Part shown: positions 48,144-53,313 of the stretch, one piece after another
How the letters are laid out: each line of letters starts with the position of its first letter
How positions within the stretch are numbered: position 1 is the stretch's first letter
Origin: Candidatus Methanomethylicia archaeon
Lineage (GTDB): Archaea > Thermoproteota > Methanomethylicia > Culexarchaeales > Culexarchaeaceae
DNA: 64,000 nt
Direction of reading: 5' to 3'
NCBI GenBank assembly: GCA_038727515.1
Contig: JAVYVS010000001.1
Coordinates: 544,001 to 608,000, forward strand
Notes under the pieces: model-generated
What the model was told of the DNA's origin: nothing
Databases searched by the model: none
The model's input: the letters and a program-made list of their open reading frames with translations, nothing else
Translations under genes and position numbers: made by a program

Positions 48144-48398
48144 ATGTCTAGGGGAAAAGTAAGTGTGAAAGAGAGATGTCACATTTGTGGAAGAAAACTT
48201 TCAAGGAATAGCTTAACCATTAGCAGAGGTAATCTAAAACCAATGTATGAATATATCCTTAAAAACGGTGAAAAGAAATTTTTGTGCTCCACATGCTTTA
48301 ATAAAATCGTGGGATTAGAATTACTAGAGTTCCTTGAGAAAATAAATGAGGAAAGCAGTAGTAAAAAGGTTAAAGTATATAGTGCAACCAATTACTAG
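48144..48398 (+). CDS. Small zinc-finger protein
   Basis: CHICGRKL ... FLCSTC; directly abuts nnr start. Confidence 0.65.
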   Translation: MSRGKVSVKERCHICGRKLSRNSLTISRGNLKPMYEYILKNGEKKFLCSTCFNKIVGLELLEFLEKINEESSSKKVKVYSATNY

Positions 48399-49958
48399 AT
48401 GATGCAAAAAATAGAAAAGGGATTAAGTGTAGAGGAAATTCAAGCAATAGACGTAAATTGTGAATATCTAGGTATAAAAAGATTAATGTTAATGGAAAAT
48501 GCGGGTGCAGAAGTTTCAAGGATAATTCTTGAAATGATAAAACCGAAAAAATGTATAACTATAGTGGCTGGAAGTGGAAATAAGGGTGGAGATGGATTTG
48601 TTGCAGCAAGACATTTGTCTAGATTGGGGATAGAGATTATAGTTATACTTATTGGGAGACCAGAAAGCATAAGAAGTGAAGAAGCAAAAATAAACTGGAA
48701 GATAATAAATGAATTAAAATCATCAATAAAAACAATAGTAATTGAAGATACAAGTCAAATAGATTCAATAAAGGAGTTATTGACTAAATCAGAGGTTATA
48801 GTTGATGCACTACTTGGAACTGGTATAAGAGGTTTAGTAAAACCACCAGCATCAGAAATAATAAAGATTATTAATCACGCAAGAGAATGTGGAGCAAAGA
48901 TAGTATCAATAGATGTACCATCAGGTATAGATCCAAATAACGGAACCCCATTGGGAGTAGCTGTAAAAGCTGATTTAACCATTACACATCACAAACCAAA
49001 AATTGGGTTAATGACAAAGGATGGAACTGGATATGCTGGTGAAATAATAGTATCAAACATTGGAATCCCACCAGAAGTAGAATTATTCGCAGGACCTGGA
49101 GACGTCATAATAAACATTAAAAGGAGAAGGGAAACTTCACATAAAGGTGATTTCGGTAGAATAATCGTTATTGGTGGTAGCATAGAATACACAGGTGCGC
49201 CAGCTCTAACAGCTTTAGCCGCTTTAAGAACTGGAGCCGATATATCTATAATCATAACTCCAAGTAAAATTGCAAATGCCATAAGAAGTTTCTCACCAAA
49301 TTTAATAGTTAAAGAATATGAAGGAGAATACTTAAATACAAAGGGATTAAAGATTATTGAAAAAGAAATTGAAAAAGCAGATGTTGTAGCTATTGGACCT
49401 GGATTATCTTCTACACAAGAAGTTTTAGACAATGCAATGGAAGTATTTAAGATGGCAGCTGAAAAAGGTAAAAACCTAGTTATAGATGCAGATGCACTAA
49501 AAGCTTATGCTAAAAACCCATCAATAGTTAAAGGAACAAGAACAATAGTAACACCACACACAGGAGAATTCAAAATAGTAACGGGAATAACTCTGCCAAA
49601 TGAAGAAGGAGAAGGATGGAAAGATAGGATACCAATAGTCATGAATGAAGCAAGAAAACTCGAAGTAACAATACTATTGAAATCACATTATGATATAATT
49701 TCAGATGGCATAAAGGTTAAGGTTAATAGAACTGGAAATCCAGGTATGACTGTGGGTGGAACTGGAGATGTACTTACAGGGGTAACATCAACATTCCTAG
49801 CTTGGACTAATAATACATTTAGATCTGCAGTAGCAGCAGCATTTATAAATGGTTTAGCAGGAGATATAGCTGTTTCTGAAAAAGGGTATCATATAACTGC
49901 AACTGATGTGGTGGAGAAAATTCCCGAAGCATTTAAAATCGTGGAGAAATACGTTTAA
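48399..49958 (+). CDS. nnr: Bifunctional NAD(P)H-hydrate epimerase/dehydratase
   Basis: LMENAG, GSGNKGGDG, DALLGTG, SIDVPSG; HKGDFG, GGS..YTGAP, DADAL, TPH.GEF, GGTGDVL. Confidence 0.95.
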   Translation: MMQKIEKGLSVEEIQAIDVNCEYLGIKRLMLMENAGAEVSRIILEMIKPKKCITIVAGSGNKGGDGFVAARHLSRLGIEIIVILIGRPESIRSEEAKINWKIINELKSSIKTIVIEDTSQIDSIKELLTKSEVIVDALLGTGIRGLVKPPASEIIKIINHARECGAKIVSIDVPSGIDPNNGTPLGVAVKADLTITHHKPKIGLMTKDGTGYAGEIIVSNIGIPPEVELFAGPGDVIINIKRRRETSHKGDFGRIIVIGGSIEYTGAPALTALAALRTGADISIIITPSKIANAIRSFSPNLIVKEYEGEYLNTKGLKIIEKEIEKADVVAIGPGLSSTQEVLDNAMEVFKMAAEKGKNLVIDADALKAYAKNPSIVKGTRTIVTPHTGEFKIVTGITLPNEEGEGWKDRIPIVMNEARKLEVTILLKSHYDIISDGIKVKVNRTGNPGMTVGGTGDVLTGVTSTFLAWTNNTFRSAVAAAFINGLAGDIAVSEKGYHITATDVVEKIPEAFKIVEKYV

Positions 49959-50622
49959 CAAAAAATTTCAATAGATGGGGTGAATCAAGTATCTTCCTTA
50001 AATAATAAGATTTACGTATAATTGGAATAGCTTTACCTTTAACAATACATTCTATAATGTCATCAATATTAGATTTAGCTTCATGGATAAAGGTACATGC
50101 AAATCCAATAGTCCAAGGTGTATGAGCATCAGAACCTGCAATCAATGGTATTTTCAATGGGAAAATATCTAAAGATGTTTTAAATGGATATATTTCTAAA
50201 GCATCAAAATAATTTTTAAGATTATATATTCTCTCACCAATACCAGAAGAACGAAATATATGTGCAGCAATAATAATACCACCAAGATCTTTAACGAAAT
50301 CGTAAAATTGATGGAAATCTAATATGCACCTATCTGGAAAATCACATTTAAAACTTGGGAAAATTACAGTTACATGACCAAAATCAAAGGAAAATTCAGC
50401 TCCAGGTAAAACTATTAAATCATTAACTTTAGCATCTAAATAAACTTTAAACCGTTTATTAAGTAAACTTAATGAATCAACATTATAGATGTGATCAACA
50501 AAAGCTAATCCATCAACTCTCCCAACACTATATTTAACAATTTTACTTGGATTATAAAGTCCATCTGATAATGAAGAATGTACATGAACATCAATATACA
50601 TAACTAAAATAAATAGTAACAA
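49933..50622 (-). CDS. PHP-domain phosphoesterase
   Basis: DVHVHS..SDG, VDH, GAE...GH, AAH, GSDAH. Confidence 0.88.
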   Translation of the reverse strand: MLLFILVMYIDVHVHSSLSDGLYNPSKIVKYSVGRVDGLAFVDHIYNVDSLSLLNKRFKVYLDAKVNDLIVLPGAEFSFDFGHVTVIFPSFKCDFPDRCILDFHQFYDFVKDLGGIIIAAHIFRSSGIGERIYNLKNYFDALEIYPFKTSLDIFPLKIPLIAGSDAHTPWTIGFACTFIHEAKSNIDDIIECIVKGKAIPIIRKSYYLRKILDSPHLLKFFVKRISPRF

Positions 50623-50745: not shown

Positions 50746-53313
50746 GTGTTAAGTAATAGAGGGTTAAATTATCCATTTACAGCAATAGTAGGTCAAGAGA
50801 AAGTGAAGAAGGCATTACTCACAATACTAGTGGACCCAACAATAAGTGGAGTACTAATAATAGGACCAAAAGGTTCTGGAAAAACTATTATCGCACGCTC
50901 CATAGTAGACTTATTACCAGAAATAGAAATTGTTGAAGGATGTACTTTCCATTGCAACCCATATAAAGTGGAAGAAATGTGTAATCAATGTAAAGAGAAG
51001 ATTACCAATGGAGAAAAGATTGAAATTGCAAAAATGAAAATGCCATTTGTAGAATTACCAATAAGTGCTACAGAAGATAGAGTAGTAGGATCAATAGATT
51101 GGGAAAAAGCTATAAGAGAAGGTGTGAAAGCTTTTCAACTAGGATTATTAGCGCAAGCAAATAGAGGAATACTATATATTGATCAAGTAAATATACTCCC
51201 AGATTCTTTAATAGATGTAATACTTGATGCTTCAGCATCTGGATGGAATGTAGTGGAGAGAGAAGGAATAAAATTGGTGCATCCAGCTAGATTTACATTG
51301 ATTGGTACAATAAACCCTGAAGAAGGAACTTTAAGACCACAAATACTGGATAGATTTGCATTATGTGTAAAAATGGAAGATATAACAGATGTAGAACGTA
51401 GAAATACCATAGCCATTAGAAACATGTTATTTGAAGAGGATCCATTAAAATTCATTGAAGAATGGAAAGAAAAACAGATTGAAGTAAAAAAGAAAATAGA
51501 AGAAGCAAGGAAAATTCTCCCAATGGTAAAAGTTCCGAGGGAAGTTGAAGAAAAAACAGTGGAATTATGTATAAAGATGAATGTAGATGGTCATAGGCCA
51601 GACATTATTATAACTAAAGTATCAAGAGTATTAGCAGCTTTAGATGGAAGATTAGAAGTATGTATTGATGACATACTTAGTGCAGCTGAATTAGCATTAC
51701 CACATAGAATTAAAGGTGAAGAATTTAAGCAGATAACTAGTGAAGAATTGAAGCAGACACTAGCATTAGCAACCACAGTTTCAAAAGCAGAAGATAAAGC
51801 TGAAGAAACTGAAGAAGAAATAAAACAAGTGAAAGTTGAAATTGGAGAAGGAATGGCTTTACCACAAATATCAAAACCTCCTGAAATTAAGAAGAAGACA
51901 TGGAATATACCTATGCCAATAGCATTAGTGATAATGATGGTTATGTATTATTTTGTCTTCTATTTTGCATTTGCAGCAGTAACATTAATGTTTGCTGGAA
52001 CTATGGGTAAGGGATGGGAAGAGGTTAGTGAATTAATGAGTGGAGAATTATATAAATGGGCTGCAATAGCACTTGGAGGATACATGCTTCTTCAAACAAT
52101 TCTTAATGCATTATCGAGGAGGAGAAAGATAGCTTATGTTAAAGCCGTTAGAGTACAGGAGGAGGAGGCAAAGAGGATAATTACACATAGAATTTTAGTA
52201 AAAGAACAGATAGTGGAGGCTCCTCCACCAATACAGAAATTTGGTGCAAGAGCATTTCAATACATATCATTATTAGGTACAAAGATTCTTTCAAGTTATA
52301 GGGCAGCTATAGATAAGGGTAGAAAGATCTTTCAAAGTATTTATGATGTAATGGCAACTCCACCACCAATGTTCAAAATAACATTATCCTCAGAATATAT
52401 GAAGGGGAGGAAGAAGGGAAGAGCAGAAGTTTCCAGAGGAGTATGGATTAGGAGGGGGAAATATGTTAAACATGCATTACCAAAGGAAAAACCATATGAT
52501 ATCGCCATAGCGCCAACAATAAGAAGTGCAGCTCCAAAACAAAAGATTAGAAGTAAAAGACAAGGTGTAGCAATAAACATAGATTATGATGATATAAGGG
52601 TTAAAGTCAAAGAAACAAGAATGCCACTAATAACCATGATAGTTTTAGATATAAGTGAATCTATGGTTTCCTCAATAGAAAGCGTAAAAGCTGCAATAAG
52701 AGGCTTACAAAAGGGAGCTCATGCTAAGAGGGATAAAATTGGATTAATAGTATTTAAAGGTAAACATGCAGAAGTACTGCAATATCCAACAACAAACGTA
52801 AATGCGGTAGTGGAGAAATTAATTAATGTTGGTGTAAGTGATTTCACACCTCTAGCTGCAGGTTTAAAGAAGGCTAGGGAAATACTTATGATGGAGAAAT
52901 CAAAAATGAAGGAATCTATACCAGTAATGGTTATAATATCAGATGGAATAGCAAACGTACCATTAGAAAATCCATTATCACCAGAGAATAGAAGTAGATT
53001 TCTAAATCCAGCTCAAGCAGATGCACTGGATATAGCGAGATTAATAGCTAAAGATGGAATAAAAACAATAGTGATAAATACAGATCATAGATCAGATGAA
53101 ATATACAAGAGGATATATTATAGAAGGGATATGCAAGTAGTATTTTATACACCAACTGCATTAATGATGGAATTAGCAAAAATAACTAGAGGAAAATACT
53201 ATGGATTAAGAGCAGATAAACCAATAGCAGAAATAGTTATAGAAGATGTTGTAAGTCAAATGCTAATAATACCGGAGAAAGCTATGGAACCAATAGGATT
53301 CTATATGGAGTAG
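50746..53313 (+). CDS. ChlI/ChlD-like chelatase AAA+ protein with internal TM hairpin and C-terminal vWA domain
   Basis: YPFTAIVGQE, GPKGSGKT, ATEDRVVGS, ANRGILYIDQVN, EREG, NPEEG.LRPQILDRF; vWA LDISESM, TPLAAGL, ISDGIAN. Confidence 0.88.
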   Translation: MLSNRGLNYPFTAIVGQEKVKKALLTILVDPTISGVLIIGPKGSGKTIIARSIVDLLPEIEIVEGCTFHCNPYKVEEMCNQCKEKITNGEKIEIAKMKMPFVELPISATEDRVVGSIDWEKAIREGVKAFQLGLLAQANRGILYIDQVNILPDSLIDVILDASASGWNVVEREGIKLVHPARFTLIGTINPEEGTLRPQILDRFALCVKMEDITDVERRNTIAIRNMLFEEDPLKFIEEWKEKQIEVKKKIEEARKILPMVKVPREVEEKTVELCIKMNVDGHRPDIIITKVSRVLAALDGRLEVCIDDILSAAELALPHRIKGEEFKQITSEELKQTLALATTVSKAEDKAEETEEEIKQVKVEIGEGMALPQISKPPEIKKKTWNIPMPIALVIMMVMYYFVFYFAFAAVTLMFAGTMGKGWEEVSELMSGELYKWAAIALGGYMLLQTILNALSRRRKIAYVKAVRVQEEEAKRIITHRILVKEQIVEAPPPIQKFGARAFQYISLLGTKILSSYRAAIDKGRKIFQSIYDVMATPPPMFKITLSSEYMKGRKKGRAEVSRGVWIRRGKYVKHALPKEKPYDIAIAPTIRSAAPKQKIRSKRQGVAINIDYDDIRVKVKETRMPLITMIVLDISESMVSSIESVKAAIRGLQKGAHAKRDKIGLIVFKGKHAEVLQYPTTNVNAVVEKLINVGVSDFTPLAAGLKKAREILMMEKSKMKESIPVMVIISDGIANVPLENPLSPENRSRFLNPAQADALDIARLIAKDGIKTIVINTDHRSDEIYKRIYYRRDMQVVFYTPTALMMELAKITRGKYYGLRADKPIAEIVIEDVVSQMLIIPEKAMEPIGFYME

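Follow-up and report, generated by a model that had tools for sequence, protein, structure and literature searches.

The window analysed here is a 64,000-nucleotide stretch from a Candidatus Methanomethylicia archaeon (contig JAVYVS010000001.1, positions 544,001 to 608,000), in which the gene at 50746–53313 codes for a membrane-anchored ChlD-like protein of 855 residues, referred to below as TM-D. The gene is transcribed rightwards from a GTG start as one open reading frame, and the product has the domain order ChlI-type AAA+ module, acidic linker, two-helix hairpin, AAPxQ segment, and von Willebrand factor A (vWA) domain with a MIDAS (metal ion-dependent adhesion site). On balance the evidence favors TM-D as the D-type adaptor in an AAA+/vWA motor of two components, ChlI/ChlD-like and operating with neither CobN nor ChlH. 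We lean slightly towards regarding the membrane-anchored ChlI/ChlD pair as a distinct archaeal machine apart from tetrapyrrole chelation: a motor at the inner membrane face that would remodel a membrane-associated client, or load it with a cofactor, and whose adaptor has repeatedly dispensed with hydrolysis, as in the I/D pair of Mg-chelatase. The locus brings together unlinked I and D genes, a fixed natural E-to-Q replacement, a family-wide Walker B contrast, and the absence of HemB and CobN.

In archaea it is common for ChlI and ChlD genes to occur with no large subunit. Such genes are routinely annotated as 'Mg chelatase', and in Bathyarchaeota they were read as pointing to chlorophyll synthesis (PMC7110647). 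The hairpin of TM-D is a first physical clue to what such a motor does, and would put its work at the membrane.

The hydrophobic hairpin and its distribution

The amino-terminal AAA+ module with its lid (aa 1–335; 50746–51750) matches Pfam PF01078 and PF17863 (Mg_chelatase at 11–192, AAA_lid_2 at 270–333) and, in the PDB, Synechocystis ChlI (8osf, E 1e-95); the vWA or integrin-I domain (aa 628–820; 52627–53205) matches Pfam VWA_2 and VWA (PF13519 and PF00092, 630–800) and the BchD structure 2x31 (E 5e-10). Walker A, GPKGSGKT (aa 40–47; 50863–50886), is intact, with K46 invariant in 80 of 80 relatives, and so is the MIDAS, whose residues D635, S637 and S639 (in DISES, 52648–52662), T701, and D733 are invariant in the same relatives. 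Walker B is ILYIDQ (51169–51186), with D146-Q147 read in the DNA as gat caa at 51181–51186; in the alignment, GILYVDEVNLL of 8osf stands opposite GILYIDQVNIL of TM-D.

Between these domains an acidic linker (aa 345–387; 51778–51906), ending in KKK, leads into two hydrophobic helices. Helix 1 (aa 388–420; 51907–52005) lies in a segment, at about aa 386–420, with a 19-residue Kyte-Doolittle maximum of 2.31; helix 2 (aa 435–458; 52048–52119) is followed by RRRK, and its position aligns with clear second segments (1.9–2.1) in close relatives. Two hydrophobic segments are resolved in 75 of 79 relatives. In an AlphaFold2 model computed from an alignment of 80 relatives (mean predicted local distance difference test score, pLDDT, 78.7) the AAA+ module scores above 90 and the vWA domain is confident; helices occupy 390–420 (pLDDT 85–91), 424–433 and 435–458 (all about 85–90), residues 345–387 are disordered (below 50), and 460–575 are poorly defined. 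The 15 residues preceding the hairpin have on average 4.9 K/R and 0.8 D/E, and the 15 following it 3.7 K/R and 1.1 D/E. Because both flanks are rich in K/R and poor in D/E, the positive-inside rule places both large domains in the cytoplasm, and these compositions fit an N-in/C-in topology in which the AAA+ and vWA domains would both face inwards.

What is kept in the hairpin region is hydrophobicity, not sequence. Further downstream comes a nearly invariant block, GRYV..P..PWDIA..PTIRAAAPxQ..DIRVKVRE, which corresponds to Pfam PF26791 'AAPxQ' and includes AAPKQ of TM-D (aa 595–599; 52528–52542). Archaeal relatives with the hairpin make up about 80 clusters (Bathyarchaeia, Culexarchaeia and Methanomethylicia). 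A word-indexed search returned more than 3000 relatives of TM-D, of which the best 90 are nearly all 780–870 aa long with two hydrophobic segments at the same site, those named among them belonging to Bathyarchaeia, Methanomethylicota/Methanomethylicia and 'Thermoproteota'. Cluster P0002 is 99% identical to TM-D, and relatives at 73–84% identity come from independent JGI, Logan and ENA samples. When a genome collection was scanned for the AAPxQ block, the hairpin form appeared in Thermoproteota archaea only (Candidatus Culexmicrobium cathedralense, Methanomethylicota, and many Bathyarchaeia), the matches in Methanomassiliicoccales, Bacillus, Chloroflexota and others being ordinary short soluble ChlD. 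A profile search with the hairpin-region alignment against 1.84 billion representatives gave 612 matches at E<=1e-3, 227 at E<=1e-10 and 12 at E<=1e-30; only about 15–25 of them span the hairpin part, the remainder matching the AAPxQ block alone, and a protein-atlas search with residues 345–625 returned AAPxQ clusters only, with sub-threshold scores. In a tree of the AAPxQ and vWA regions the hairpin forms are one clade (Shimodaira–Hasegawa-like approximate likelihood ratio test, SH-aLRT, 96), and together with soluble forms of about 800 aa they are grouped apart from canonical short ChlD (SH-aLRT 100). No description of a membrane anchor was found in the literature on AAPxQ or on archaeal ChlD with transmembrane segments.

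The preliminary description of this gene had proposed the hairpin and the cytoplasmic location of both domains, together with an intact Walker A and MIDAS and a Walker B of YIDQ, and on all of these points it holds, with helix 2 only moderately hydrophobic in TM-D itself. It had also named two artefacts that could mimic these features, and both are refuted: a chimera or misassembly, as homologues in some 80 clusters keep the hairpin, and a read error, as DQ is fixed in the whole 73–99% clade from independent samples.

The stand-alone ChlI gene and the Walker B series

A search with the TM-D protein located a second ChlI-type gene in the same genome (G000:C2:38174-39244), coding for a 357-aa protein that is 52% identical and carries ILYVDEIN. 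The same pair of a stand-alone ChlI and a hairpin form is present in two other genomes of the family (G080 and G206). In ten of eleven Bathyarchaeia genomes a ChlI gene of about 350–390 codons lies directly upstream of the hairpin form on the same strand, the two genes overlapping by 4 nt at one extreme and lying 113 nt apart at the other; in the eleventh (G263) the only hairpin-form gene is broken, and no ChlI is linked to it. In the Culexarchaeia-like genomes the pair is unlinked. Altogether 13 of the 15 further hairpin-bearing genomes have a stand-alone ChlI, the exceptions being G263 and the 0.9-Mb genome G252. In a 251-genome sample of the phylum, complete stand-alone ChlI occurs in the three family genomes only, which are also the sole genomes there with a hairpin form; the leftovers are ChlI-like fragments of about 170–180 aa in G004 and G117 and a contig-end frame in G105. 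No other ChlD-type vWA protein was found in the TM-D genome for the stand-alone ChlI to serve. With a separate ChlI of intact DE in the genome, and an operon partner of the same kind in Bathyarchaeia, we judge it considerably more probable that TM-D is the D-type adaptor of a two-protein I/D motor than that it is a lone scaffold.

Some genomes have two or three such pairs. The closed Bathyarchaeia chromosome CP070659.1 (G256; loci L033, L037, L073 and L083) has three units, one with DN and one with DE; one unit is preceded by a 118-aa ChlI remnant only, and there is a further lone ChlI-like gene.

The glutamine at Walker B is a fixed feature of the nearest relatives, present in all eight clusters P0001–P0008 (73–99% identity; JGI, Logan and ENA) and in G080 and G206. 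Across 80 hairpin forms the pair is DE in 50, DQ in 13, ED in 8, DD in 4, DN in 4 and DG in 1, and a tree of 96 AAA+ modules requires at least nine changes between Glu and other residues, all inside the hairpin forms. The non-Glu clades sit on long stems; that of the TM-D clade measures 0.49, and its sister is a DE-bearing Culexarchaeia-like clade. Replacements are confined to the adaptor subunit, Walker B being DE in all 17 distinct stand-alone I partners and in all 24 soluble single-gene forms. The nucleotide-binding residues are retained, and in the 80 hairpin forms K46, R203, R219, R284 and R321, like every MIDAS residue, show little or no variation, R197 being present in 79. The catalytic glutamate has thus been lost repeatedly and independently from the adaptor while nucleotide binding residues were kept. 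Given the intact stand-alone ChlI, the E-to-Q replacement is what an ordinary I/D motor would lead one to expect, ChlD being the non-hydrolysing subunit. The preliminary description had read TM-D as an ATP-binding, hydrolysis-poor scaffold; the first part is a fair reading of the retained residues and the missing glutamate, and the scaffold on its own gives way to a protein with a ChlI partner.

Divergence within the family points the same way. Between the TM-D genome and G080 or G206 the stand-alone ChlI is 88–89% identical and the vWA part of TM-D 89%, versus 72% for the AAA+ module of TM-D. We read the pattern as an I/D-pair signature, in which the stand-alone ATPase and the adaptor domain are constrained and the adaptor's own ATPase module is relaxed. 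The pattern in TM-D matches the biochemistry of Synechocystis ChlD, for which ATPase activity has never been observed, whose E152Q form assembles with ChlI as tightly as wild type, with sub-nanomolar apparent affinity, and keeps reduced activity, and whose Walker A mutant K49A is inactive (PMC3789969).

In the mechanism proposed here the stand-alone ChlI would form the hydrolysing ring. The anchored subunit, with its intact P-loop and conserved arginines, would bind ATP without turnover in the DQ clade, and this binding would serve nucleotide-dependent assembly or docking with the ChlI ring, as in the engineered ChlD E152Q. The ring pore would take hold of the vWA domain of TM-D, as has been shown for CobST and put forward for NorQD and CbbQO, with the outward-facing MIDAS holding a client at the inner face of the membrane; the motor would then remodel the client or help load a cofactor into it. 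The client is probably not a tetrapyrrole.

Several points weigh against this interpretation. Helix 2 of TM-D reaches a Kyte-Doolittle value of only about 1.4 (hand calculation), below the usual 1.6. The binding of ChlI to TM-D is suggested by gene content, and in the TM-D genome the two genes lie on different contigs, so that the pairing is one of co-occurrence and of operons in distant relatives. At least half of the family retains DE; in many lineages ATP may therefore be hydrolysed by the D-subunit module, and the 'dead' Walker B state is clade-specific. No third gene beyond chlI is conserved near any locus in neighbor clustering (19 and then 15 loci). Finally, the gene absences reported below come from metagenome-assembled genomes, although three of the carriers are closed chromosomes.

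The alternative that survives best, though we consider it unlikely, is that TM-D acts alone as a homo-oligomeric, ATP-locked membrane scaffold or sensor, and that the unlinked ChlI serves another process. A glutamine at Walker B typically stabilizes ATP-bound oligomers, the soluble long form works with one gene, and the ChlI and hairpin-form genes are on different contigs here and unlinked in the Culexarchaeia-like genomes. Against this stand the co-occurrence of hairpin form and ChlI in three of three family genomes and 13 of 15 other carriers, the restriction of complete stand-alone ChlI to the three hairpin-form genomes of the phylum sample, the tight operons of Bathyarchaeia, and the lack of another ChlD-type vWA protein in the genome with which ChlI could work.

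The large subunit and neighboring genes

CobN was not found in the window, as the preliminary description had noted, nor in the whole genome (PF02514; 93.6% complete), and PF02514 searches for CobN/ChlH were likewise negative in G080, G206 and 11 of 11 Bathyarchaeia carriers including closed chromosomes; control genomes were positive in the same search. HemB was not found in the TM-D genome or in 17 other carriers, three of them closed chromosomes, and HemC, CbiX and McrA were not found in the TM-D genome. Because CobN, HemB, HemC and CbiX were not found, a tetrapyrrole chelatase role for TM-D is unlikely, and the customary Mg-chelatase annotation is hard to reconcile with genomes lacking CobN and HemB. 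The phylum sample divides along the same line: all 23 genomes with a short (600–740 aa) ChlD have CobN, mostly adjoining, and the 20 genomes with long forms all lack it.

CobN is present in four Culexarchaeia-like genomes. Three of these (G251, G253 and G264) have a third, short soluble ChlI-type gene within a few kb of CobN; in the fourth, G252, CobN is a contig-end fragment and no CobN-linked short ChlI-type gene was seen. HemB was not found in G251, G253 or G264 despite their CobN and short ChlI-type genes, which points towards salvage or remodelling of corrinoids in these genomes and away from their de novo synthesis.

We regard as distinctly improbable, then, that the pair is a true class I tetrapyrrole chelatase motor (for Mg, Co or Ni) with a large subunit too divergent to have been recognised, or one acting on salvaged tetrapyrroles or corrinoids at the membrane, for example by an importer. 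The nearest families by sequence are indeed ChlI, ChlD and 'putative cobaltochelatase', Pan et al. 2020 read the Bathyarchaeota chlI and chlD as chelatase genes (PMC7110647), and the CobN-bearing Culexarchaeia-like genomes that also lack HemB indicate that salvage-type chelation exists in the group. However, the NCBIfam models that rank highest for TM-D ('putative cobaltochelatase' TIGR02442, BchI-ChlI and BchD-ChlD) all score below their curated cut-offs (590.5 versus 779.45 for TIGR02442, 367 versus 499.55 for TIGR02031), the large subunit and early pathway enzymes were not found in the genomes just listed, the CobN genomes G251, G253 and G264 carry a separate short soluble ChlI-type gene near CobN, and no large conserved neighbor was found at the TM-D loci.

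The preliminary description had also noted the closeness of TM-D to feoB and suggested a coupling to iron or cobalt uptake. The 9-nt spacing is confirmed: TM-D ends 9 nt from the feoB stop (53323), with feoB on the opposite strand, so that the two genes converge. That TM-D is a scaffold working together with FeoB in the uptake of Fe (or Co) is nevertheless very improbable. The nearness of the stop codons, the retention of the adjacency in G080, G206 and L003/L004, and the membrane location and metal links common to TM-D and FeoB would favor it, but convergent genes are not co-transcribed, and the adjacency is seen only at 78% identity or above. At 56% identity feoAB is 4.6 kb away, with TldD/PmbA, Sua5 and, in L005, DapB intervening (L005, L025–L027); the annotated Bathyarchaeia locus L007 has no feo genes, and no feo-like family recurs among the other loci. 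The feoAB genes have their own DtxR-type repressor upstream, and the words shared by the TM-D and dtxR-feoAB promoter regions are AT-rich and TATA-like only, with no convincing shared operator. The neighborhood of TM-D and feoB is thus a matter of local synteny between convergent genes, and more distant relatives do not keep it.

Least probable of all is a role of the I/D motor in unfolding substrates for a TldD/PmbA-type metalloprotease or delivering them to it: in four Culexarchaeia-like loci such a pair is the next thing downstream, in the same orientation (L005:10603-13340, L025, L026 and L027) and divergently upstream of the soluble long form in L010, with a single contig-end family member in L014, but it is not adjacent to the hairpin form in the TM-D family or in Bathyarchaeia, and none of the four pairs in the TM-D genome is near the TM-D gene, making it a likely chance neighbor.

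Upstream of TM-D in the window (48144–49958 and 49933–50622) are an 84-aa Cys-rich open reading frame, a bifunctional YjeF_N/Carb_kinase protein (Nnr, NAD(P)HX repair) and a PHP_C protein, and these remain syntenic with the TM-D gene down to 56% identity (L005, L025–L027). Pfam searches of the genes 3' of the Bathyarchaeia operons returned housekeeping functions only (Elf1, PcrB, PolD DP2 and TPP enzymes) and no client candidate. PADLOC defence models gave nothing specific, only generic AAA+ matches (E>=4e-4 for TM-D, 3e-6 for the stand-alone ChlI). A programmed frameshift of the fs-chlD type was considered and rejected, the gene having a single open frame and no slippery A-run within 51730–51930.

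The AAA+ module also has four cysteines, C66, C70, C79 and C82 (CX3C...CX2C; 50941–50991), that are invariant in the AAA+ alignment and probably form a zinc knuckle near the H2 insert. This knuckle, about 20 residues past Walker A, occurs in every one of the 96 archaeal ChlI-type modules that were checked (hairpin, soluble long, stand-alone and CobN-linked); the aligned stretch of cyanobacterial ChlI has no Cys at the position.

Comparison with known systems

One system close to TM-D is the soluble ChlI-AAPxQ-vWA form of about 800 aa found in Bathyarchaeia and relatives (L010–L023), which is its sister by vWA (SH-aLRT 100), belongs to the same AAPxQ family, and likewise occurs in genomes without CobN. 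Unlike TM-D, this form has no hairpin and its Walker B is always DE. Its partners were checked in 14 genomes of the GTDB sample (G228, G204, G013, G141, G109, G216, G133, G089, G049, G057, G121, G041, G065 and G009), and stand-alone ChlI was found in none of the 14, nor was CobN. In the trees its AAA+ module groups with the stand-alone I partners and its vWA with the hairpin forms; this would fit a soluble long form that arose from an I + D operon, through fusion or deletion.

In the case of fs-chlD, a single gene yields two products, a short one like ChlI and a long one like ChlD (Antonov et al. 2013; Kuznetsov et al. 2022, PMC9227772); some occur in archaea, in part without a large subunit, and Kuznetsov et al. 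call the function of chlI/chlD without chlH/cobN unexplored, in a catalogue that makes no mention of membranes (PMC9227772). The TM-D system differs in consisting of two separate genes, with no slippery run in the linker.

The MoxR-class pairs CobS/CobT, NorQ/NorD and CbbQ/CbbO are similar in combining an AAA+ ATPase with a MIDAS-vWA adaptor and in being encoded together, as are the genes of Bathyarchaeia, although those of the TM-D genome are unlinked. They differ from TM-D in that their adaptors lack an AAA+ module and in that their client genes tend to lie beside them; at the TM-D loci no neighbor beyond ChlI is conserved. To our knowledge no MoxR-class adaptor has a membrane anchor. In these pairs an AAA+ hexamer handles, through its pore, a MIDAS-vWA adaptor that holds the client, for cofactor insertion or for remodelling of enzymes that include the membrane-bound cNOR (PMC9976466; bioRxiv 10.64898/2026.10.09.757910). 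A finger of the vWA domain enters the AAA+ pore in CobST, and pore engagement has been proposed for NorQD and CbbQO (bioRxiv 10.64898/2026.10.09.757910; PMC9976466).

A further comparison is with ChlD/BchD, the partners of ChlI/BchI in the Mg-chelatase motor and, in the ChlID variant, in serving CobN. TM-D differs from them in its two-helix membrane hairpin, versus the soluble acidic, proline-rich linker of ChlD; in scoring below the NCBIfam cut-offs, with a vWA clade separate from canonical short ChlD; in coming from genomes where ChlH/CobN was not found (its own and 11 of 11 Bathyarchaeia carriers) and HemB was found in none of 18 carriers; and in the four-Cys knuckle of its AAA+ module. What it shares with them is the order of ChlI-type AAA+ module, acidic linker, AAPxQ and MIDAS-vWA domain, and a ChlI with an intact site that is encoded by its own gene, in many relatives the neighboring one. 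Another common trait is that the AAA+ module of the D subunit can do without ATP hydrolysis (PMC3789969), and the natural Walker B series of the hairpin forms is an evolutionary counterpart of ChlD E152Q that offers ready-made variants for the division of binding and hydrolysis between I and D subunits.

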